64,000 nt of DNA. Source: Escherichia phage Ec_YwIITB1. Shown piece after piece: positions 28,502 to 39,772 of this stretch. Where the stretch lies: the sequence record PQ356294.1; one strand, 5' to 3'. The translations under genes and the position numbers were made by a program. A model generated the notes under the pieces. The model did no database searches and was not told the DNA's origin. It saw only the letters and a list, made by a program, of their open reading frames with translations. Position 1 is the first letter of the stretch. The number at the start of each line of letters is the position of its first letter.

Positions 28502-28554
28502 CCTCATGTTATGTCAGTAAGACTATTATAACACAGCACGAGGGACTTGTAAAC
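28502..28554 (-). promoter_or_regulatory. sigma70-like early promoter plus leader and RBS (cassette copy A)
   Basis: Reverse strand TTTACA, 17-nt spacer, TATAAT, then GAGG and ATG 28493; 50 of 53 nt identical to 44191-44243. Confidence 0.55.
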
Positions 28555-30611
28555 TACATCTTGAACTTTTTAGACATTCCGTTGATGTTAACCAAAGAAG
28601 CCAAGATTTGAGAAACTTCGTTTTCCTCTTCTTTTGATTCTTCTACAAGGAATTGATTAAACCCAGCCATTGGACGAACTTCACCAGTTTCCATTAGATG
28701 ATCGCCATCATATACCGATTCTTCTAATTGTTCAGAAGGAGGAACGATTGTGCCTTCAATTAGATACTTGTTATAAGCAGTTTCTTTCATCATGTACGTG
28801 CTCACTTTATTAATCTTCAGCAAAATTCCACGTGGTAGAATAACTTCAGCTTCTGATGGAAATCCTGATAAATGACCTGGAACGATAACTTTGATTCGCT
28901 CAGCCCCTTTAATTACCATACCTACGCTAGCTTCAGCATCTTCATTAGCATATGCAGAATGACTACCCATATGCATTAAATCTTCAGCATCAACAGAACC
29001 TTCTCCTTCACCAGAAAATACTGCGCCGGAATCATCTAGAGCCATATAGTTTTTACCATGCTCACCGAAGATATTTGGTTTAAGCGATGTTGATACGAAG
29101 TTCTTGAAATAGAACATTTTATTTTCAATATTATGGCGTAAAGTTTTAAAAGTAACTTCTTGTCCACGATAAAGCGTAATTCCCGGAGGAAGAACTGAAC
29201 CTTTGGCAAAGGCAGAATCCAGCGTCTCGATGTGTTTAATAGCTCGTTCCATATATTCTTCACGGGTAGAATCTGGTTTACCCAAGAGGAACGAGTTCAT
29301 TTCAACATATGAATCTGCACAATAATCTTCAATTACAACAGACTCAGCCTGAGTTAATCCTTTTGGAGTTACTTCAGTGCTTGCGTATTCATATGCCTGA
29401 GCAGCAGATTCATTAATCAATTTATAAATGCCATTCATGACAAATTGAATAATAGCTACCTTTTCGTCTGGCGTAGCTTTAGAACCTTTAACTAAATCAT
29501 TGATAATTTTCTTAATAACATCAAAGCTATTAGAAATATTAATGTCAGCGAGATCGCTCAAAATTTTATCGGTTTTATAATCAAAAAATTCTTTATTCTT
29601 TAAATATTCTTGAGAACCTTGATATGTTATATCGCTCTGCAGTCTGATAGACGGATCGCGTAAACGTGCATGGGCCAATGCAATATGATTTCGGAGGCTT
29701 TCTAGTTCATAATCGTTAGATTTAAAACGAGAAGCACTTCTCATACCACCGATAGCTCCTTTGCTGAAGTTGGAACCAATCTGAATAACGCCAGAGTTCA
29801 TTGGTCCTTCTGCTTTATATACCGGAACTTTAGATTCAAACTCTTGATATTTCTTGGCGGCGAAGCTATCGCCCTGAAGTGAAGCATCGACAGTAGAATA
29901 TTGAGCTTGCGCTGCCAATCGACGACTAATTTTAGTTTTCTGAATAACAGCTTGATCCGTGCGCTTATCATTTTCTAAAGCAATAGAAGCAGCAACAGCA
30001 ACAGCTTTAGGAACAGCATTACCTGTTTTAACATCTACATAAACATCACCAACCTTTGATTCAACTTTTGTGAATAACTCAGTTGAAATAGGAGGTACAC
30101 CTGGAATGTCTTCTAAATTGGCATTTTTACGGTAAACCATAATATATGCATACTTTTTATCATAATCCCAGATTTCCTTTAAAAGAACATATCGACCTGC
30201 TCCTTTAGTACGTACTAAACGGTCAGCAATAACTTGCATCTGACGAGCTGCGCCATTTGTTTTACTTTTTAGTACGCGGAATAGGCATGCATCAATTTTA
30301 TACTGTTTCATTGTTTGAAGAGCAGTATCAAAAACCGCATTAATGACACCAATTGGATTTCCACCCAAGTTTTTAAGTTTAACTAATGATAGTTTCTCAT
30401 TAACACCTATCATTACGATATGCATCATTTTATCGCCTGGCTTAACGTTTTTATTTGTATCACCGCCAGAGGTGTATGTACAAAATCTAAATCCAGGAAG
30501 CACACTTTCTTCGCCGGCTTGAATAGCAAAAATTTGAGGTATTTTATGCTTAGGATTTAAGTTAACAACCGGCGCCGAAGCGCCGTCAAATAATTCTGTA
30601 ATAAGTTCCAT
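28554..30611 (-). CDS. Alt-like ADP-ribosyltransferase, second paralog
   Basis: 685-aa ORF; N-terminal ~230 aa closely similar to the adjacent Alt; ART-like motifs YRGQ, FVSTSL, EAEVILPRG. Confidence 0.8.
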   Translation of the reverse strand: MELITELFDGASAPVVNLNPKHKIPQIFAIQAGEESVLPGFRFCTYTSGGDTNKNVKPGDKMMHIVMIGVNEKLSLVKLKNLGGNPIGVINAVFDTALQTMKQYKIDACLFRVLKSKTNGAARQMQVIADRLVRTKGAGRYVLLKEIWDYDKKYAYIMVYRKNANLEDIPGVPPISTELFTKVESKVGDVYVDVKTGNAVPKAVAVAASIALENDKRTDQAVIQKTKISRRLAAQAQYSTVDASLQGDSFAAKKYQEFESKVPVYKAEGPMNSGVIQIGSNFSKGAIGGMRSASRFKSNDYELESLRNHIALAHARLRDPSIRLQSDITYQGSQEYLKNKEFFDYKTDKILSDLADINISNSFDVIKKIINDLVKGSKATPDEKVAIIQFVMNGIYKLINESAAQAYEYASTEVTPKGLTQAESVVIEDYCADSYVEMNSFLLGKPDSTREEYMERAIKHIETLDSAFAKGSVLPPGITLYRGQEVTFKTLRHNIENKMFYFKNFVSTSLKPNIFGEHGKNYMALDDSGAVFSGEGEGSVDAEDLMHMGSHSAYANEDAEASVGMVIKGAERIKVIVPGHLSGFPSEAEVILPRGILLKINKVSTYMMKETAYNKYLIEGTIVPPSEQLEESVYDGDHLMETGEVRPMAGFNQFLVEESKEEENEVSQILASLVNINGMSKKFKM

Positions 30612-30614
30612 GAT

Positions 30615-32669
30615 TTATCCTTGAACGAACTTGTAAGGCATGTTTGTAATATCTATGCAAGACGCAATAATTCCAAGAGATGATTCTACTTTTTGTTTAA
30701 CATTTGATGAAACAAATGATGCAAAGTCAACTCTGTCTTCTATTTCAATATCATCTGTCATTGCAACTACTTCACCAGTTTCCATTAGACGATCACCGTC
30801 ATAAATTACTGATTCGGTGAGTTCTTCGGTAGTCATAACTTCAGCTTGAATAAGCTTGTTGTTAGTTTTAGCTGTTCCATCATTGTAAGATGCGTCGGTT
30901 ATTTTATTGACTTTGACCATCAATCCACGCGGCAAAATGACTTCCATTTCATTTGAAGGCGCTAAACTTCCACCTGGTAAAACAACGTTGACTTTATCAG
31001 CCCCAGTAATAACCCATCCAATTCCAACTAAATTATCGCTAGAATTAACAAGTCCTTCATCGTTTTTATCGATAGAAATGTTTAGACGCTTTTCGTCTGG
31101 TAAAACACCCACAGCTGAATCAGTCATCCAAGTACCAAAAATGTTTGGATATAATGATGTTGATACAAAATTTCTAAAATAAAAAACTCGATTTTTTACC
31201 AATGCTTCATATATTGAAGGAGCAGTCATGCTTTGAGCACGATAAACTGTAATGCCTTCTGGTATACGGTCACCATTTTCAAAGGCTGAATCTAAATTAT
31301 TTATCGCAGATTCAATTTCTTTTTCACTCATTACCTCATATCGTTCTGGATTATATAATCCCAAAAGAGCATTATTCATGTCTACATATCCTGAACCTAC
31401 GTATTCACGAATTCCGCGTTTTTGTGCCGGTGTGTATTTAGATGAATCTTTATTTTCGACTATAGAATGCAATGACCATCCAACGGTAAGAGCATATCCA
31501 CGTAATTCTCTTCGAATAATCTTTGTTTTTATTGCATTCCAAGAATTTTGCACTAACTCATTCGCAGCATCTTGATTTAAATGCGAATGCTTGTTAATAT
31601 TTCTTTCTAACCAAGCACCTTTATATTTTTCTAAAGTATCATCAACTATAGAAGCAATAGTTTCTAAAGTTTTTATTGAAGTAATAGATTCTTTTCGTAA
31701 TCTTTCTAAAGCTTTATTTTTTATTTCTGCATTAACATCAGATTCTTTATCTTCAGGAATTATAGAAGCTTCTCTGAATGCCATTCCAGCTGTAACACTA
31801 TTAAGAGCATTCTCTAATGCAAATCCTGAAGTAGAAATAACAGTTAATTCGTTAGCATCAGAAATTAAAGGCGCGTCAGCGGGTTTATTTAATTCTGCTG
31901 CTGAAGCCTCAAATTTTTGAAACATTGGTGTTTCAAATCTAGAAGATTCTAATGATTGACTTTGTGCAATTGCTCTACGGGAAATTTTAACTTTAACGAT
32001 TACAGCTTGGTCAGAACGTTTATCGTTTTCTTGCGCAATAGATGCAGCAATGGCCTCATTTTTAGTTACTTGAGCTCCGGTATCTTTATTGATATAAACA
32101 TCGCCGACTTTCGATTCAACTTTAGTAAAGAGCTCTGTACTAATTTCAGGAACTCCTGGAATGTCTTCTAATGATACATTTTTGCGATGTATAAGAATAT
32201 ATGCATACTTTTTATCGTAATCCCAGAGTTCCTTAAGAAGGACGTATCTGCCACCTGAACGACTACGGATAAGTCTATCAGCAATAAGTTGAATTTGACG
32301 AGCTTGACCAGCAGTTTTAGACTTAAGAATACGGAGCATGCAGGCATCAATTTTATACTGACGCATCGTTTGCATTGCAACAGTAAAAACTGAATTGATA
32401 TAATTAATTGGGCTTGGACCGAGACCTTTTAATTTAGCGATTGAACCTTTAGCAGTTAATGTAAAAGGAACAATATGCATCATTTTATCGCCCATCTTTA
32501 AATCGCGATTAGTATCACCTCCAGATGTGTAGGTACATAAACGAAAACCTGGTTGTTCAATTGCGTCATCAACATGAACTGAAAAAATTTGCGGTATTTT
32601 CTTCTTTGGATTTAAGTTTGTAATCGGAAGAGTAGTATCTTCGTCAAATAATTCTGTAATGAGTTCCAT
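30615..32669 (-). CDS. alt: Alt ADP-ribosyltransferase (virion-packaged)
   Basis: ORF open from 32672 (MMELITE); second ATG 32669 better spaced from GAGGA; motifs YRAQ, FVSTSL, EMEVILPRG; late promoter upstream. Confidence 0.85.
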   Translation of the reverse strand: MELITELFDEDTTLPITNLNPKKKIPQIFSVHVDDAIEQPGFRLCTYTSGGDTNRDLKMGDKMMHIVPFTLTAKGSIAKLKGLGPSPINYINSVFTVAMQTMRQYKIDACMLRILKSKTAGQARQIQLIADRLIRSRSGGRYVLLKELWDYDKKYAYILIHRKNVSLEDIPGVPEISTELFTKVESKVGDVYINKDTGAQVTKNEAIAASIAQENDKRSDQAVIVKVKISRRAIAQSQSLESSRFETPMFQKFEASAAELNKPADAPLISDANELTVISTSGFALENALNSVTAGMAFREASIIPEDKESDVNAEIKNKALERLRKESITSIKTLETIASIVDDTLEKYKGAWLERNINKHSHLNQDAANELVQNSWNAIKTKIIRRELRGYALTVGWSLHSIVENKDSSKYTPAQKRGIREYVGSGYVDMNNALLGLYNPERYEVMSEKEIESAINNLDSAFENGDRIPEGITVYRAQSMTAPSIYEALVKNRVFYFRNFVSTSLYPNIFGTWMTDSAVGVLPDEKRLNISIDKNDEGLVNSSDNLVGIGWVITGADKVNVVLPGGSLAPSNEMEVILPRGLMVKVNKITDASYNDGTAKTNNKLIQAEVMTTEELTESVIYDGDRLMETGEVVAMTDDIEIEDRVDFASFVSSNVKQKVESSLGIIASCIDITNMPYKFVQG

Positions 32670-32692
32670 CATATCCTCTCTAGTGTTTATTC

Positions 32693-32700
32693 TATTTATA
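32693..32700 (-). promoter_or_regulatory. late promoter for alt
   Basis: TATAAATA on reverse strand about 21 nt before the alt start. Confidence 0.55.
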
Positions 32701-32705
32701 AAATT

Positions 32706-32723
32706 AAAGGCCCGAAGGCCTTT
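32706..32723 (-). terminator. hairpin upstream of alt
   Basis: AAAGGCCCGAAGGCCTTT. Confidence 0.35.
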
Positions 32724-32910
32724 AATAATCTATTGGTAAGAGAGTACGATATATTTCAAACTTTGGACCTTTTTCATAGGTATCAAATGTTTCTGTGAAT
32801 TTATTATAAGCATATGCATCTATAAATTCAATCATAATTTGTGATACAGAAGTAGAAACATCTCCACCTTCTTTTTGAGCCACGACAATTGTTTCTAAAT
32901 AAGCTTTCAT
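32722..32910 (-). CDS. hypothetical protein
   Basis: 62-aa ORF overlapping ligase stop. Confidence 0.55.
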   Translation of the reverse strand: MKAYLETIVVAQKEGGDVSTSVSQIMIEFIDAYAYNKFTETFDTYEKGPKFEIYRTLLPIDY

Positions 32911-34370
32911 AGACCAGTTACCTCATGAAAATCACCAAATACATCCTCGAATGTATTAGCTTTAGTTTTATCTTCACGCAAACGAATCGCAATCGGAAGA
33001 AATAATTTAACGTAATCAGTGCGGCCATCAGATTTTAACCAACCATTGCATTCACACTCTAGAATTTTTCCAATATAATAATTTTGGTTTTCCATAATGC
33101 GAGTACGGTCAAGTTCATGTGATTTTACACCGGCTTTATCTTTTAAGCCTGAACCAGCATTTACTTTAATTTTTCCACACTCTGATTCAAGAATAAATCC
33201 ACCTGCTTTAGTAGGGTCTTTACGGTGAGGATAAATTCCTACAATTTTTAAATCAACATCAATTACTTCTTTAAATTTATAAAGATTTTTTGAACGAGCA
33301 TTTTCCCACAATCCATCGGTATTTTTGAGAATAATACCTTCAAGACCTTGGTCAATATATTTTTTATAAATTACCTTAGCTTCATCTAGATTATTTACTA
33401 CTTGGTTTTCAATTAAAATTACTTTATCATATCCTGATGTCATTTGTTCTAGTTTAGAAAAACGTACATCATATTTTAAACGAAATGCTGGAAGACCGTA
33501 TATTTCTACCAACGGGACATAATCCCAGACCTGAAACTTCATGCATTGAGCTTCTTTTTCTGAAATAGTTCCTTTTAAGGATTTATTGGCGATTCCATTA
33601 GAAGTAGTACGCGATTCCGCTACTTCGGAGAATTCTTTAGCTTTACTAATTTCAGGATAAGCATCAAAAAGAAAATCTAGGCCTTCTGGTTCCTTTTTAA
33701 CCTGCTCATGGTATACCAATTCACCGTCAATTAACACACCTTCTGGATGAATCTGGCGAGCTTCAGCAGTCATTTTGATTAACTCTTCCTTAAGAAGATC
33801 TAATCCTAGATATTCATTACCAGCTCGTGATAAAAGACGAACATCATCTAATTCATCACCTCTGACTTCAGCAAAACATCGAGCTCCATCTGCTTTTAAC
33901 TGCGCAAAAGCTGGAAACTTAATATTCTTACTAATGCCTTTTTCATCATAAGAACTTGCCAGCATTTGAGGTTGTTCGGGAATTAAACCTGGCCAAACTT
34001 TATTTGCAATAGATACCGAAGCACCACATTCAAGGTCTCGCATCATAACTCGACGCAAAACTTCAACATCATCCTTTTTACCGTCAGTAATATAACCTAC
34101 TAATTCCTCAATTGCTGCATTTCCAGTCAATTTCCGAGTAGCTAACGTGAATTCAATGAAGTCAAGCATATCGGTAATAGTCAGCATCCCAAAACTCTGG
34201 GTAGAAATACCAGGTTTAGGCCATTTCTTGATATAATACTGTAACCCACGAGAATAAGTCAGACGATATACTCTTTTAAGCAATTCATTATCTTTATTCT
34301 TTTCAAGAATTGCTTGCTTCTGCTTAGTTGATCCAATAGATGCTATTTCATTCAGAATTTTAAGAATCAT
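32907..34370 (-). CDS. 30: ATP-dependent DNA ligase gp30
   Basis: 487-aa ORF; adenylation motif LKADG. Confidence 0.95.
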   Translation of the reverse strand: MILKILNEIASIGSTKQKQAILEKNKDNELLKRVYRLTYSRGLQYYIKKWPKPGISTQSFGMLTITDMLDFIEFTLATRKLTGNAAIEELVGYITDGKKDDVEVLRRVMMRDLECGASVSIANKVWPGLIPEQPQMLASSYDEKGISKNIKFPAFAQLKADGARCFAEVRGDELDDVRLLSRAGNEYLGLDLLKEELIKMTAEARQIHPEGVLIDGELVYHEQVKKEPEGLDFLFDAYPEISKAKEFSEVAESRTTSNGIANKSLKGTISEKEAQCMKFQVWDYVPLVEIYGLPAFRLKYDVRFSKLEQMTSGYDKVILIENQVVNNLDEAKVIYKKYIDQGLEGIILKNTDGLWENARSKNLYKFKEVIDVDLKIVGIYPHRKDPTKAGGFILESECGKIKVNAGSGLKDKAGVKSHELDRTRIMENQNYYIGKILECECNGWLKSDGRTDYVKLFLPIAIRLREDKTKANTFEDVFGDFHEVTGL

Positions 34371-34636
34371 TGCTCATCCTTCAAGGTTTGGTTTACAGCT
34401 CTATTATAAATCAATTCATCATTAAGCTCAGTTAAAGACCTATGATATGTAGTTCTAACTTTATTTCCTTGCATCCAGTGCTTAATATAAATGAAACCTT
34501 GCTCTACACATTTTTTAAAAATTCGTTCGTCTTTTTGAGCTCTGAATTCTGGATTACATCTAAAGAATTGATTTACGTGACCGTAATCACGTGTAGTATT
34601 ACCTTCATTTTCATAAATAGTGTGAACGACAAACAT
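34367..34636 (-). CDS. hypothetical protein (30.1 position)
   Basis: 89-aa ORF, overlapping stop/start. Confidence 0.65.
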   Translation of the reverse strand: MFVVHTIYENEGNTTRDYGHVNQFFRCNPEFRAQKDERIFKKCVEQGFIYIKHWMQGNKVRTTYHRSLTELNDELIYNRAVNQTLKDEQ

Positions 34637-35475
34637 TAGAATGCTCCTTGGAAAATATTATCACCGCTAGTAGGTCTATTATACAAATACTCTATGCCAC
34701 CAGGTTTAATATAGTTCCATGTCTGAAACGGATGTGTCTGATATGGATGATATAGATGATTATAAGGATTAAATCCAGGCGTTCTCCAGGTAGTGTTCCA
34801 ACGAAAAGAATCGTTTTTAACCATCTTCTCAATTAAATCTTTTATAGCTTTTTCACTATCAAAACTTTCTTTATTTTCCTTCGGCGAAAAAAGCTTATTT
34901 TCTACATCATTCCATGTATAAACTCGCTGCGCAGTTTTTGGAATATTGTCACGCTCTCCTCGCGCCATCCAATAAACAGGAACATTTAATATTTCACTCG
35001 CATGATCGCAGTGGTGAGCGAGATCGTCAATATAACAAATTACGTTATATTTCTCTTTTGCCTTTTTAAACAACTCTTCTTTTGAAGAATCATGACCACA
35101 CATCATTACTTCTGAGAAGGCACCAGGAAAAAGAGCATTCAAATTAAATTGACGATTCAACAGAGCGTCAATAGAATCACCCAATGCTGTGACAGCTACA
35201 AAATTATAATCTTCTTTTAATTTGTTAATTACACACAGTGCATCTTTATATGGAGACAAGTAACGAATAAAATCTGATCGATTATATTTTTCAATTAACT
35301 TGACACCAAGTTCTTCATCGCATTTAAATAGTTTACCTGGAGAAATAAATTTCTCATCTTGGATCATTTTTAAAATATGTTCTAACGGAAGATTATATTT
35401 CTGAGCAAAATAAGGAAGACCTGATTGCCAGCTTAAACATACTCCATCAATATCAGTTAAAATAGTAGGCTTCAT
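34636..35475 (-). CDS. HAD-like phosphatase family protein (30.2 position)
   Basis: 279-aa ORF; N-terminal DIDGV motif. Confidence 0.65.
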   Translation of the reverse strand: MKPTILTDIDGVCLSWQSGLPYFAQKYNLPLEHILKMIQDEKFISPGKLFKCDEELGVKLIEKYNRSDFIRYLSPYKDALCVINKLKEDYNFVAVTALGDSIDALLNRQFNLNALFPGAFSEVMMCGHDSSKEELFKKAKEKYNVICYIDDLAHHCDHASEILNVPVYWMARGERDNIPKTAQRVYTWNDVENKLFSPKENKESFDSEKAIKDLIEKMVKNDSFRWNTTWRTPGFNPYNHLYHPYQTHPFQTWNYIKPGGIEYLYNRPTSGDNIFQGAF

Positions 35476-35930
35476 AGAGAGTCTCTTAATAGGTTTAACA
35501 CATCAATAAATTCAGCTTCGGTTAGTATTGTATCATCTTTTGTTAGACCACTAGCCATGCTGTGCTTCAAAACTTTTCCTTTCGAGGCTTGTAATGCATC
35601 ACGAAAGCCCCTGTTTTGGAACGCTGCTTCAAAATATGCATTTGTGTATAATTCTTTCCACGCTGGAGAGTATCTTGAAAACGGAACTCCAAGCCAGAAG
35701 AGGGTCCCACGGTCCTGAGCTCTAGCATAAGACCTTCCAGCTTGTTGGGCTGCAAGCCCGGATAACCCAAATATACGTCTTTGCTGTTCAACATTTTTCA
35801 CCTTACATCCTTGGAGGAATCCTTCGAGACCTCCAAATTGAATGTCATCCATAACGAAAGGCCATTGGGCGAAATTACTTAATGCACATGATGGCCATTT
35901 AAAATTGCTTCTAATCTCTAACTCAGACAT
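35472..35930 (-). CDS. NADAR / YbiA-like (DUF1768) protein (30.3 position)
   Basis: 152-aa ORF; SNFAQWP motif resembling the E. coli YbiA signature. Confidence 0.65.
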   Translation of the reverse strand: MSELEIRSNFKWPSCALSNFAQWPFVMDDIQFGGLEGFLQGCKVKNVEQQRRIFGLSGLAAQQAGRSYARAQDRGTLFWLGVPFSRYSPAWKELYTNAYFEAAFQNRGFRDALQASKGKVLKHSMASGLTKDDTILTEAEFIDVLNLLRDSL

Positions 35931-36138
35931 CTTTAATACTTATAATTTCAATATCAGCCCAATGACCGTAACTTGGTAAACGGTCTTCAATAGATAATCC
36001 GCCATCATATTTAAGCATTTTAATTGTCATAATATATGGCTCTAAATGGTCTTCAGTGAGCGGAGAGACATCAGTCACACGATAAGTAACTTCGACCATT
36101 TCCGTGCCCAGTAATTTCTTGATTAATTTCTTAAACAT
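35923..36138 (-). CDS. hypothetical protein
   Basis: 71-aa ORF. Confidence 0.55.
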   Translation of the reverse strand: MFKKLIKKLLGTEMVEVTYRVTDVSPLTEDHLEPYIMTIKMLKYDGGLSIEDRLPSYGHWADIEIISIKDV

Positions 36139-36142
36139 TTTA

Positions 36143-36430
36143 TTAGAACCTCATCTGAAAACCGTGCGATTTAACATTACCGCCGCCAATATCAGAAATG
36201 TTAATTTCACACGCAATTGAAGGGTCAATGTCAATTTCACGATTGAGTTTAGTGATAGCTAAAGTATCGCGGCCATTTACAGTACGGAACTCTAAAGGAC
36301 ATACTACATTAACGTAGTTTTTAATCGATTCGCTGGTAGGTTGCAAATGAGCAGGAAGGTCTTTAGGTGCCTTAGAGAAAACCACTTCACAGAAATTTTT
36401 GCGGGTGTCAAAATAAGTAGTCATAAACAT
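36143..36430 (-). CDS. hypothetical protein
   Basis: 95-aa ORF. Confidence 0.6.
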   Translation of the reverse strand: MFMTTYFDTRKNFCEVVFSKAPKDLPAHLQPTSESIKNYVNVVCPLEFRTVNGRDTLAITKLNREIDIDPSIACEINISDIGGGNVKSHGFQMRF

Positions 36431-36445
36431 AGTATTTTCCTCAGT

Positions 36446-36463
36446 GAGGGGCCGAAGCCCCTC
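36446..36463 (-). other. GC hairpin in intergenic leader
   Basis: GAGGGGCCGAAGCCCCTC. Confidence 0.35.
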
Positions 36464-36471
36464 ATTTTATT

Positions 36472-36837
36472 TTAAATATCAAATTCGTTAAGAACTACAT
36501 CAAAGATTGCTTCAAGATGCTCAGGTTTAGCTCTGTTACTCAGAATATGACGAATCCAAGTTTTAACCAGAAGCTTGCGATTAACGCCATTCCAGCAAGG
36601 ATGAGTCCCTAAATCGCGCTGACAAAAATCATCATCCAAAGCGATTTTGAAGTTGGAACCTTCCATTGTGATTGAAACCGTGATGCCATTTTCAAATCGC
36701 ATATAAACGTAGTTAGGAGTCATATACTGTTCAATTTCGCATACTGATCCATTTTGATGTTTCCAAAGGCAAATAGTATCAATAGAACCTGCAATACCAT
36801 TAGAAACATATTTACGTTCAAAGTTGATGTAGTTCAT
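36472..36837 (-). CDS. hypothetical protein
   Basis: 121-aa ORF with GGAG RBS. Confidence 0.6.
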   Translation of the reverse strand: MNYINFERKYVSNGIAGSIDTICLWKHQNGSVCEIEQYMTPNYVYMRFENGITVSITMEGSNFKIALDDDFCQRDLGTHPCWNGVNRKLLVKTWIRHILSNRAKPEHLEAIFDVVLNEFDI

Positions 36838-36863
36838 TTTTATTCTCCGAGATGTTTAATTGC

Positions 36864-36903
36864 GGTACAGGTATATAATATCATATCCTGTACCAAAGTA
36901 AAC
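36864..36903 (-). promoter_or_regulatory. early promoter embedded in an 8-bp-stem palindrome
   Basis: Stem GGTACAGG / CCTGTACC around a 15-nt AT loop; reverse strand GTTTAC, 17-nt spacer, TATTAT. Confidence 0.45.
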
Positions 36904-36905
36904 AA

Positions 36906-37238
36906 TTATTTTACTACTTTCCAATGCTTCATGTCAAGTTTACCAACTTTTTTCATCTTCTCAATTAAGCGTTCTGCGCGTTGGCGAGCTGTAACATAAT
37001 GCCATTCACCTAATTCATTTTGTTCAATTTTTCCAACGATTACTGTATTCAATTCATAAATCCAACCAGTAAAGAAATTATGAACTTGAATTGTAAAGGT
37101 GAAATCTGTCCCCATACCTTCTGTTGTTTCTACTTCAATGATATCACCTTCAACTGCCATTAAGAACCACATAGTTTCATCATATTTACCATTGAAGCAT
37201 TTAGTTTTAACTGCAGCGTTCAGATTAATCGTTTTCAT
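36906..37238 (-). CDS. hypothetical protein
   Basis: 110-aa ORF. Confidence 0.6.
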   Translation of the reverse strand: MKTINLNAAVKTKCFNGKYDETMWFLMAVEGDIIEVETTEGMGTDFTFTIQVHNFFTGWIYELNTVIVGKIEQNELGEWHYVTARQRAERLIEKMKKVGKLDMKHWKVVK

Positions 37239-37314
37239 TTTATTCTCCTTTGTTTGTGTAAGATAATACTATCACAAAGGAACCATACTGTAAACAACTT
37301 TGTGCAGTCTTTGG

Positions 37315-37344
37315 AAAATAAAAAAGGACTCCCGAAGGAGTCCT
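37315..37344 (-). terminator. intrinsic terminator (reverse strand) after ORF 37349-37567
   Basis: AGGACTCCCGAAGGAGTCCT followed by T-run on reverse strand. Confidence 0.5.
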
Positions 37345-37348
37345 CAAC

Positions 37349-37567
37349 TTATGCTTTCTGCTTACCAAAACGAGAAGCATCATCTCGAAGAACCGCACGT
37401 GCTCGGCGCATGATCTTCTCAACAGTTTGATTGATACGAGAGTTCGACCCACGCTTGTAACCAGCGCGTTTAGAATCACCAACTTTCTTTTCAACTGCTT
37501 TCTTTGCTTTAGCTTGTTTTGCCATTATAAATTCTCTTTTAAATGAAAATGCAGGACTTATTGACAT
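37349..37567 (-). CDS. small basic protein, hypothetical
   Basis: 72-aa Lys/Arg-rich ORF; possible internal start at MAKQAK. Confidence 0.55.
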   Translation of the reverse strand: MSISPAFSFKREFIMAKQAKAKKAVEKKVGDSKRAGYKRGSNSRINQTVEKIMRRARAVLRDDASRFGKQKA

Positions 37568-37878
37568 TGCCTGCTAAAGCCCTCAAGGGGGACATAGGTT
37601 TTTGAATATTTAACGACCAGGATAACCATAAACCCGTCAACATACCTTATAGCTCTTATCTGTTGCACACCGTTAGCTTAAAGGTTCCGGGTTCGATTTC
37701 TCGAGGATAAGATATATACTGATGGATATATAGGCCTTGAGGCGTACTCCCGATTAGCCATCACCTCGGGGTAGCATGCACTTGCCGCTATAAAATAACA
37801 TTCAAGAGGTACACCGTAAAACAAAGTTCGACGGCTCCTCGATTTTAGCTCACACTAAGGCAGTGAATCTCCAATAAA
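37568..37878. other. ORF-free, relatively GC-rich structured region; candidate non-coding RNA or regulatory element
   Basis: Stops in all six frames; 8-bp long-range complement CCTCAAGG (37581-37588) / CCTTGAGG (37735-37742); several local palindromes. Confidence 0.3.
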
Positions 37879-38127
37879 TTACTTCAGTGTTACCACAAAG
37901 TGACGAACTGCTTTTCGTGCAGCAGAAGCCAGTGGCTTAGCATATTTAAGTTCATCTTTTTCCTGAAGCTCAGCAGCTAATGCAGTTTGAGCAGGATTCA
38001 GATGTTTGAAATAACGCAGGATTTCAAGAGCTTCGGCTTCAACATCAATAGATGCGCCATAGTTTTCGTGACCATTATTCCATGCGTTTCGTTGCAGTTC
38101 AAGAGCGTGTTGTAATTGTTTAATCAT
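37879..38127 (-). CDS. rIII: rIII lysis inhibition accessory protein
   Basis: 82-aa ORF; T4 homolog. Confidence 0.9.
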   Translation of the reverse strand: MIKQLQHALELQRNAWNNGHENYGASIDVEAEALEILRYFKHLNPAQTALAAELQEKDELKYAKPLASAARKAVRHFVVTLK

Positions 38128-38253
38128 TTAAAAATTCTCGTTAGAGATTAAAACTCGGTAGTCACGTTCTTCTGAATTTCATCTTCTTTCGACAGATCTC
38201 TCAGTTGTAGACTACCACATAGAATTGAAACCCAATTCATATTATTATTTATA

Positions 38254-38589
38254 TCACTTATAAAGACATGGAATAGCTTTATAGTGACAGGTAACGAATT
38301 TTTGTTTAATTTCTTTTGGCTGCTTAAGACCCAGAGCTACAAAAGGATGCGGAACGTTTCGAATTTGACCAACTGGAAGAGAAGTCAAATCACCAACTTC
38401 ACAGAAACCTTCAGGAACATCAGGACCAACGGAGTGAACTACACACAGTTCAGGAACTTCACCTTGAACACGTTTACCGATAATAAGTCCTGATTCTGTA
38501 ACTTCTTCATCACCAGCCTGTGCAGGTTCAGAAACTAAAATAACATATTCACCGACAGCACGAATTGGTAGCTGTTGTACTTCAGACAT
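38254..38589 (-). CDS. 31: gp31 co-chaperonin (GroES-like)
   Basis: 111-aa ORF; T4 homolog; MotA-type promoter upstream. Confidence 0.9.
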
Positions 38590-38619
38590 CGTTTTTCCTT
38601 TTTGTTAACAGATGAATTA

Positions 38620-38647
38620 ATAATAACAAATAATTCTTAAAGCATTT
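38620..38647 (-). promoter_or_regulatory. MotA-dependent middle promoter of gene 31
   Basis: Reverse strand AAATGCTTTA, 12-nt spacer, TATTAT. Confidence 0.45.
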
Positions 38648-38954
38648 ATTTACCAATAAATTGAAGCAAATGCTCAACTTTCATACCATTAACGGAAATC
38701 AATTTGTCAATAGAAAAACCTCGCCATGCACCAAGCTCAACATCAAATACTGGAACCATATCAGTAGATTCTTTCCGAGTAGATTCAGTCAATTTACCGG
38801 TTTGCATGGTTGGCATAAAATCGGCATCACGAGTACCTTTCATAGTACGAATAGTACCATCAGACTTTTCAAAAACTATGTTTGAAACACCCATGGACAA
38901 TTTAGTTTTCAAAATTTCACGAATTGCTACTTTCTGTTCAGTTGTCAGTTTCAT
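38646..38954 (-). CDS. hypothetical protein (31.1 position)
   Basis: 102-aa ORF. Confidence 0.65.
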   Translation of the reverse strand: MKLTTEQKVAIREILKTKLSMGVSNIVFEKSDGTIRTMKGTRDADFMPTMQTGKLTESTRKESTDMVPVFDVELGAWRGFSIDKLISVNGMKVEHLLQFIGK

Positions 38955-39191
38955 TTATTTACCTATTACAGTTTTAATATGGGTTGTTCCACGTTCTTTA
39001 AGAGTGGAAAGCAATTTTTGGCATTTTTCTAAATCAGATTTCCAACTATACGGTCTATCAATACAAACCCATTCTGACTTATAATACTGCTTCCATTTAG
39101 AGAAAAAATACTTCTTATACTCTACAGCAAATGAAATATTCTCGTTAGAATAAGAACTAATTGCTGTGAGCTGTACCAAACGAAATTTCAT
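38955..39191 (-). CDS. hypothetical protein (31.2 position)
   Basis: 78-aa ORF. Confidence 0.6.
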   Translation of the reverse strand: MKFRLVQLTAISSYSNENISFAVEYKKYFFSKWKQYYKSEWVCIDRPYSWKSDLEKCQKLLSTLKERGTTHIKTVIGK

Positions 39192-39772
39192 TATTCACCA
39201 CAGAATTCGTTGATGTTTTCCCAGTTTAACTTATTCAAGTTTTTCTTAGGAACATTAAACACTTCAATACCCGCATTTCGCAGAATATCATCCCAGCCAG
39301 GTTTATTTTTATCGTATGTTTCACAATAAACCAGCTTTTTAATACCAGATTGAGCTATCGCTTTTGCACAATCTGGGCATGGAGAAAGTGTTACATACAT
39401 AGTAGCACCTTCAATTGAAGAACCATTTCGTGCAGCAAACAAAATTGCATTTAGTTCAGCATGAATTTCATTTTTAGACGACCATTCAGAGTGCGCGCTA
39501 CGGTGTTCTTTCGCCAAGACAAAACGATCAGTTGAACCAAATGATACGCATTCAGGCTTATGACCTTGAATGATAGTATGTTTAGGCTTATTCAACAACC
39601 AACCTTGCTCAGCAGCATAATCACAGCAATTCACACCACCTGCAGGTGAACCATTATATCCGGTAGAAATAATACGTCCATTCTTTTCAATTACTGCTCC
39701 TACCTTCCAGGAGCAACATTTTGATTCTTGCGATACTAAATATGCAATTTGAAGTACTGTACTCGCTTTCAT
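39191..39772 (-). CDS. cd: dCMP deaminase
   Basis: 193-aa ORF; zinc-binding HAE...PCPDC motifs. Confidence 0.9.
   Translation of the reverse strand: MKASTVLQIAYLVSQESKCCSWKVGAVIEKNGRIISTGYNGSPAGGVNCCDYAAEQGWLLNKPKHTIIQGHKPECVSFGSTDRFVLAKEHRSAHSEWSSKNEIHAELNAILFAARNGSSIEGATMYVTLSPCPDCAKAIAQSGIKKLVYCETYDKNKPGWDDILRNAGIEVFNVPKKNLNKLNWENINEFCGE

Follow-up and report, generated by a model that had tools for sequence, protein, structure and literature searches.

Within the DNA analyzed here, a stretch of 64,000 nucleotides from Escherichia phage Ec_YwIITB1 (PQ356294.1; hereafter the window), there is a small gene whose product carries a SNFAQWP motif, and genes for Alt-type ADP-ribosyltransferases are found in the same region. 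The question raised by this locus is whether the small protein belongs to the NADAR family, and whether it serves the phage's own ADP-ribosyltransferases or acts against a defense of the host. An earlier reading of the letters alone (the sequence-only reading) had pointed to a 152-aa open reading frame with this motif. The frame is present. It starts with ATG, has 152 codons, and lies on the minus strand, which the sequence-only reading had not given.

35472..35930, minus strand: gene 30.3 (adfN), encoding a 152-aa protein of the NADAR superfamily (phage gp30.3 clade), as judged from the ORF, PF08010, identity to T4, fold, and hhalign
35859..35879, minus strand: SNFAQWP motif (residues 18-24), with S18, N19, and F20 invariant; aligns with SNFAAWP of YbiA

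The protein can be aligned with T4 gp30.3 without gaps and at equal length, and 147 of the 152 residues are identical (97%). The five substitutions, written with the window residue first and the T4 residue last, are K11R, D29G, F104I, R107K, and M125I. The window is from a T4-like phage (Tequatrovirus); over the 1.5 kb around 30.3 it matches hundreds of genomes of this genus at 96-99% identity, and the genes follow each other as in T4: ligase, 30.1, 30.2, 30.3, 30.4. Judged by its sequence and by its place between 30.2 and 30.4, the gene is the ortholog of T4 gene 30.3, which is now also called adfN. The family is widespread, with 30.3 identified by tblastn in 1510 phage records. Only five phage records have a protein at least 99% identical to that of the window.

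A second frame is nested within 30.3.

35567..35794, minus strand: nested ORF 30.3' (75 aa, +1 frame within 30.3), annotated in T4

In the window, T4, MLF4, Bp7, and ABTNLsp5 (the last two are Dhakavirus), this frame has no stop for 76 codons, and the Met start is kept. The genomes compared are too close in kinship for the open frame to prove that 30.3' is a coding gene.

The sequence-only reading had assigned the protein to the NADAR family on the strength of the motif. This assignment does not appear when the protein is searched by itself. In Pfam, the window gp30.3 belongs to PF08010 (Phage_30_3; E 4.9e-68), and PF08719 (NADAR) is absent from the scan of the window protein at its curated threshold and even at E ≤ 10. 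The NCBIfam search with the window protein returned no match, a single-sequence phmmer search of the PDB sequences returned a chance match only (E 0.86), and in PHROGs the protein falls in an unnamed family (PHROG 652). Since the NADAR link is not visible in single-sequence searches, profiles and structure were needed. An alignment of 64 family members, with identities of 34-86%, was explored. Residues that are invariant in all 64 include S18, N19, F20, E36, G37, F38, Q40, K43, and H123. Scanned member by member, 26 of the 64 relatives match PF08719 (best E 1.5e-7), and reciprocally, several genuine YbiA-like proteins bear precomputed PF08010 matches. The family profile, searched against the PDB sequences, identified E. 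coli YbiA (2b3w) at E 0.0011 with the SNF motif and the Glu/Lys pair aligned. A comparison by hhalign of the 30.3 family with a 40-member YbiA alignment gave a probability of 97.5% (E 7.4e-12) over 142 columns. Both the family profile and hhalign place SNFAQWP against S30-N31-F32-A33-A34-W35-P36 of YbiA. The pattern E..[FY].Q..K is also present, and S18, N19, F20, E36, Q40, and K43 correspond to S30, N31, F32, E48, Q52, and K55 of YbiA. On these alignments, the likeness of SNFAQWP to YbiA/NADAR is not a matter of chance.

The PHROG 652 profile has 296 positions and gp30.3 covers only 126-272 of them. A protein of Tenacibaculum phage pT24 (292 aa, BFVD A0A1B4XWL9) contains a gp30.3-like domain in approximately half of its length. 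From the length of the profile and from the pT24 protein, it follows that longer and possibly fused forms of the gp30.3 NADAR clade exist.

Structure prediction, which had been suggested as a check on the family, agrees with the profiles. From the alignment, AlphaFold2 gave a confident model (pLDDT 93.2, pTM 0.88), with strands at residues 3-6, 25-27, 30-32, 76-79, 82-85, and 120-123 and helices at 35-41, 47-54, 58-66, 89-105, 107-115, and 138-151. When it was compared with the PDB by Foldseek, the top three matches were 2b3w, 8bau, and 8bat, each with a probability of 1.00, and all others had E > 3. These three are the solved NADAR structures, YbiA, a Phytophthora NADAR, and a DarG1-type NADAR of Geobacter (G. 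lovleyi), respectively. Of the three, E. coli YbiA ranks first (E 1.1e-5, TMq 0.67). In a search of BFVD, NADAR-named proteins are frequent from rank 6 on, and ahead of them are a few gp30.3-like proteins without a name or function. The hhalign result, the 26 PF08719 matches among relatives, the model, and the PDB matches support the identification of gp30.3 as a NADAR-superfamily protein, even though its own sequence has no direct match to PF08719.

The residues on which NADAR activity would depend can be located in the window as follows.

35823..35825, minus strand: codon for E36, the catalytic glutamate, invariant in 64/64; E48 in YbiA
35802..35804, minus strand: codon for K43, a conserved lysine, invariant in 64/64; K55 in YbiA
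35562..35564, minus strand: codon for H123 in the last beta-strand, invariant in 64/64; ends model strand 120-123
35475..35519, minus strand: C-terminal helix, residues 138-152 (138-151 in the model), intact
35844..35846, minus strand: residue D29, Asp in place of a near-invariant Gly

In T4 AdfN, the mutants E36A and K43A are impaired, with a partial loss of function (PMC11825919). At the residue concerned in the last strand, YbiA has Glu, the DarT1-linked BC4488 family has Asp, and phage gp30.3 proteins have His (PMC11125620, PMC11543638). H123 follows this rule for the phage clade. In the hhalign alignment it stands opposite YbiA H126, one residue off E125, and the register can be taken only to within one residue. 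A phage NADAR group bearing His was already described in the bioinformatic study of de Souza and Aravind, as related by PMC11543638.

The function of T4 30.3 has been the subject of papers in Nat Commun 2025 and Toxins 2024 and of a 2025 transposon-screen preprint (PMC11825919, PMC11125620, bioRxiv 10.1101/2025.11.20.689424). The resistance of T2 and T4 to DarTG1 was mapped to 30.3 with recombinant phages and the gene was renamed adfN, for anti-DarT factor NADAR (Johannesman et al., 2025; PMC11825919). Without adfN, T4 becomes sensitive to DarTG1, and truncation at the C-terminus weakens AdfN (PMC11825919). Purified T4 AdfN takes ADP-ribose off DarT1-modified DNA (PMC11825919). Resistance in infection was demonstrated for T4 and T2 by deletion, chimeras, and transposon screening (PMC11825919; bioRxiv 10.1101/2025.11.20.689424). 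In the HIDEN-SEQ transposon screen of the preprint, adfN insertions disappeared only on DarTG1 hosts, and they were costless on K-12 without DarTG1. In an independent in vitro study, T4 gp30.3 acted on guanosine-ADPr but not on thymidine-ADPr, and the NADARs tested so far act on guanine-ADP-ribose (PMC11125620).

It is very probable that 30.3 in the window is an adfN ortholog encoding a small, stand-alone N-glycosidase of NADAR fold that clears ADP-ribose from phage DNA and counters DarTG1. When a DarTG1 host is infected, DarT1 would ADP-ribosylate guanine in the phage DNA and block replication. AdfN would then hydrolyze the guanine-ADP-ribose bond, and the cleared DNA could continue to be replicated. 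AdfN would be, in effect, an orphan copy of the host DarG1 antitoxin. The orthology, the NADAR fold, the retained E36, K43, and H123, the intact C-terminal helix, and the tight packing from 30.9 to 30 were computed here; the window allele, with its five differences from T4 including G29D, would be expected to be active like T4 AdfN. The sequence-only reading had proposed counter-defense through reversal of DNA ADP-ribosylation, and this matches the published DNA ADP-ribosylglycohydrolase activity of the 97%-identical T4 ortholog against DarT1.

It had also been suggested that expression of the gene might rescue phage or cells from DarT-type toxins. For phage this holds, in T4 and in T-even infection. 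For cells it does not, as the T4 protein gives no rescue of uninfected cells from DarT1 (PMC11125620; PMC11825919). Non-T-even phages are rescued weakly by T4 AdfN and its full effect is seen only in T-even infection (PMC11825919). Because of the failure in uninfected cells and the weak effect in non-T-even phages, a T-even cofactor has been postulated (PMC11825919). These T4 results mean that the picture of AdfN as an enzyme only is incomplete.

The fold of YbiA leads to another reading, in which gp30.3 is a metabolic N-glycosidase of the YbiA type that cleaves intermediates of the riboflavin pathway or degrades soluble immune signals derived from ADP-ribose, and does not repair DNA. YbiA is a housekeeping N-glycosidase of riboflavin intermediates. 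E. coli YbiA (PF08719 NADAR/DUF1768; 2b3w) is the best PDB match to the fold; at an identity of ~16-20%, it has the SNFA-WP motif and the Glu/Lys pair in common with gp30.3. Several family members are named 'YbiA (DUF1768 family)' in IMG, and phage NADARs have been argued to target mainly soluble ADPr derivatives (PMC9503650). However, the ND-YWG-G-G-G-N block of YbiA is replaced in gp30.3 by a shorter loop. The invariant C-terminal block (E125, T127, D130, Y132, W133, G136, G137, etc.) is absent, with a 7-residue gap there in the hhalign alignment, and in the phage clade, as its defining feature, His replaces the family acid. In the published phylogeny, the T4 clade is nearest to DarT1-linked antitoxins and not to YbiA (PMC11825919). 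The removal of ADP-ribose from DNA and the DarTG1-specific phenotype have both been shown directly for T4. A metabolic role of the YbiA type appears highly improbable.

A different concern is that the adfN allele of the window could be inactive or weakened, through G29D or the other differences from T4, in the manner of the RB69 frameshift. RB69 owes its sensitivity to DarTG1 to a frameshift, by which its gp30.3 loses the last 15 residues (PMC11825919). No such frameshift is present in the window, where residues 126-152 are the T4 sequence, the gene runs to its full length with the C-terminal helix, and no catalytic or invariant residue has been lost. Position 29 is the one that draws attention. 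It is Gly in 58 of the 64 family members, in T4, MLF4, Bp7, and ABTNLsp5, and at the aligned position of the YbiA family, and Asp in the window protein. Nevertheless, the alignment of 64 contains five sequences with Asp here, the window protein counted among them, and for this reason the change is probably tolerated. In the high-confidence model, the site is the hairpin turn that joins strands 25-27 and 30-32. In addition, one further phage record has a gp30.3 at 99.3% identity to that of the window. A weakened allele is considered very unlikely.

The neighborhood of 30.3 is that of T4. The neighboring ORFs are in the T4 order, 30 (DNA ligase), 30.1, 30.2, 30.4, 30.6, 30.7, 30.8, rIII, and 31, and the two that adjoin 30.3 are the following.

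34636..35475, minus strand: gene 30.2 (279 aa), downstream neighbor, 96% identical to T4 30.2; phrog_420
35923..36138, minus strand: gene 30.4 (71 aa), upstream neighbor, 49% identical to T4 30.4

The ATG of 30.2 overlaps the stop of 30.3 by 4 nt, ATGA (CTATGAAG), and 30.2 is translationally coupled to 30.3. At the other end, the last 8 nt of 30.4 overlap the start of 30.3 (ATGTCTGA). From the 8-nt and 4-nt overlaps, it can be seen that 30.3 is tightly packed in a co-directional cluster. The product of 30.2 has no Pfam or NCBIfam match. Its N-terminus, ILTDIDGVCLSW, resembles HAD-phosphatase motif I by eye, and an ortholog of 30.2 is labeled 'putative phosphatase' in one phage record.

Just upstream of 30.3 there is a mosaic patch (35923..36143, minus strand) in which 30.4, at 49% identity, has 71 aa compared with 68 aa in T4 and 30.5 is absent. 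The flanks of the patch (30.2, 30.3, and 30.6) are 96-97% identical to T4. Two hairpins with T-runs, both strong and GC-rich, are found inside the 30.x cluster. One, scored on the plus strand, is AGTGAGGGGC-CGAA-GCCCCTCATT (36443..36466), between 30.7 and 30.6. The other, GAGGACTCC-TTCG-GGAGTCCTT (37324..37345), was scored on the minus strand and was placed within a 72-aa ORF (37349..37567) taken as the counterpart of T4 30.9.

Generic signal scans of 32500..39500 were uninformative, with 25 sigma-70 promoter sites against 24.4 expected and four terminators against 3.9 expected. The hairpin between alt.1 and alt described below is not among these four. A regular-expression search for middle promoters with a MotA box found none between 30.3 and rIII, and the timing of 30.3 was therefore taken from T4 omics data.

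Gene 30.2 adjoins 30.3 in T4, Bp7, MLF4, and Acinetobacter phage Apostate, and it is nearby in KP15. There is no 30.2 beside 30.3 in the RB49-like phage Aragogtheria, Aeromonas phage SW69-9, a KVP40-like Vibrio phage, and Ochrobactrum phage ORM_20. The possibility that 30.2 is an obligate partner of 30.3 was rejected as a general rule by these distant neighborhoods.

The neighbors of 30.3 are 30.2 and 30.4 and not a DarT gene, and the Pfam scans of ten proteins between 28554 and 37238 gave no match to DarT families. The gene is an orphan antitoxin homolog and not a toxin-antitoxin module. Compared with DarG1 (the BC4488 family, the G. lovleyi protein 8bat, and the E. coli C7 NADAR), gp30.3 has the same fold, with a Foldseek probability of 1.00. 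According to the literature on the T4 ortholog, it also shares the de-ADP-ribosylation of guanine, and DarG1 is the closest relative of the gp30.3 clade in published trees. Unlike DarG1, the window gp30.3 has no adjacent DarT gene and no N-terminal extension and has His for Asp in the last strand, and T4 AdfN cannot stand in for DarG1 in uninfected cells. AdfN(Bas32) and AdfN(Bas60), from T5-like and Vequintavirinae phages, are also phage NADARs, and their chemistry against DarTG1 is the same. Unlike gp30.3, they belong to other NADAR clades, were independently acquired, and work without the T-even context. T4 AdfN is the closest comparison, sharing the 97% identity over 152 residues, the neighbors 30.2 and 30.4, E36, K43, H123, and the C-terminal helix, and differing in the five substitutions, in the divergent 30.4, and in the lack of 30.5 in the window.

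The sequence-only reading had placed the gene in an early operon, in the same early region as the Alt ADP-ribosyltransferases, and had linked them by function. The Alt genes are indeed there.

30615..32672, minus strand: alt, ortholog of the T4 Alt ADP-ribosyltransferase (PF03496, E 2.3e-35; 88% identical to T4); context only, outside the 30.3 unit
28554..30611, minus strand: second full-length Alt paralog (PF03496, E 7.2e-21); context only
32693..32724, minus strand: hairpin and T4 late-promoter box between alt.1 and alt, read from the sequence and found by pattern search

The tandem genes each encode 685 aa and are 42% identical to each other; T4 has one alt and the remnants alt.-1 and alt.-2. 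Among the matches listed, many T4-like records have two matching places for Alt. As the nearest ADP-ribosyltransferase genes to 30.3, 2.8 kb downstream on the same strand, they could suggest that 30.3 is a housekeeping partner that reverses or limits ADP-ribosylation by Alt, ModA, or ModB. Both genes are also widespread in Straboviridae, with Alt in 1222 phage records by tblastn and 30.3 in the 1510 given above. However, directly after the alt.1 stop codon there is a GC-rich hairpin, TAAAGGCC-TTCG-GGCCTTTA (32705..32724), and after it the late-promoter box TATAAATA (32693..32700), 21 nt upstream of the alt ATG. As read from the letters, the hairpin and TATAAATA set alt apart from the early unit of ligase, 30.x, and alt.1. 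The T4 time course agrees, since alt is RNA-middle/protein-late and 30.3 is RNA-early/protein-late (PMC9697503, supplementary file 4). Genes 30, 30.1, 30.2, and alt.1 of T4 are RNA-early/protein-middle (PMC9697503, supplementary file 4). The early transcription of 30.3 stands, as seen in T4, and a placement of alt in one operon with 30.3 is not supported.

The chemistry is also different. Alt is annotated with peptidyl-arginine ADP-ribosylation in the T4 omics table (PMC9697503), whereas the NADARs tested so far, T4 gp30.3 among them, use guanine-ADP-ribose as a substrate but not thymidine-ADP-ribose. In distant members the neighborhood dissolves. In KP15 and Acinetobacter phage Apostate, 30.3 is linked to ligase and 30.2, and in the RB49-like phage it is linked to ligase alone. 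Neither alt nor ligase is within 4 kb of the 30.3 homolog in the Aeromonas, KVP40-like Vibrio, and Ochrobactrum phages, and 30.3 is present in about 290 more records than Alt. The co-occurrence of the two genes was rejected as functional evidence, both being common in Straboviridae. In T4, adfN is dispensable unless the host has DarTG1, as the costless insertions on K-12 in the preprint indicate. Given the late promoter of alt, the timing, the chemistry, and the distant neighborhoods, the proximity of Alt and 30.3 reflects shared T4 synteny and is no evidence of a functional pair. The proposed link to the phage's own Alt enzymes is not supported, and there is hardly any likelihood that 30.3 is a partner of Alt, ModA, or ModB.

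Two additions to the anti-DarTG1 role of adfN can be imagined. AdfN could have a second role on products of the phage's own ADP-ribosyltransferases, for example off-target ADP-ribosylation of guanine or nucleic acid by one of the two Alt paralogs, or the T-even factor could be encoded in the 30.x cluster, for example by 30.2. T4 keeps adfN with one Alt only, which argues against the first. The second is opposed by the RB49-like phages, which keep 30.3 without 30.2, and by the DarTG1 transposon screen, which names adfN only in the available part of the preprint (bioRxiv 10.1101/2025.11.20.689424). Very little probability is given to this pair of additions.

The 30.3 family had been classed with NADAR earlier by comparative genomics, and papers of 2024-2025 reported its biochemical activity and its role against DarTG1. 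The family call and the counter-defense role are already known, and there is nothing new at this gene. The finding has value for annotation, as most phage records among the matches listed name the gene 'hypothetical protein' and neither Pfam nor NCBIfam gives it a NADAR name. Where a T-even phage has an intact 30.3 that retains E36, K43, H123, and the C-terminal helix, resistance to DarTG1 is predicted, and this prediction would be useful in the choice of therapeutic phages and in the interpretation of host range.
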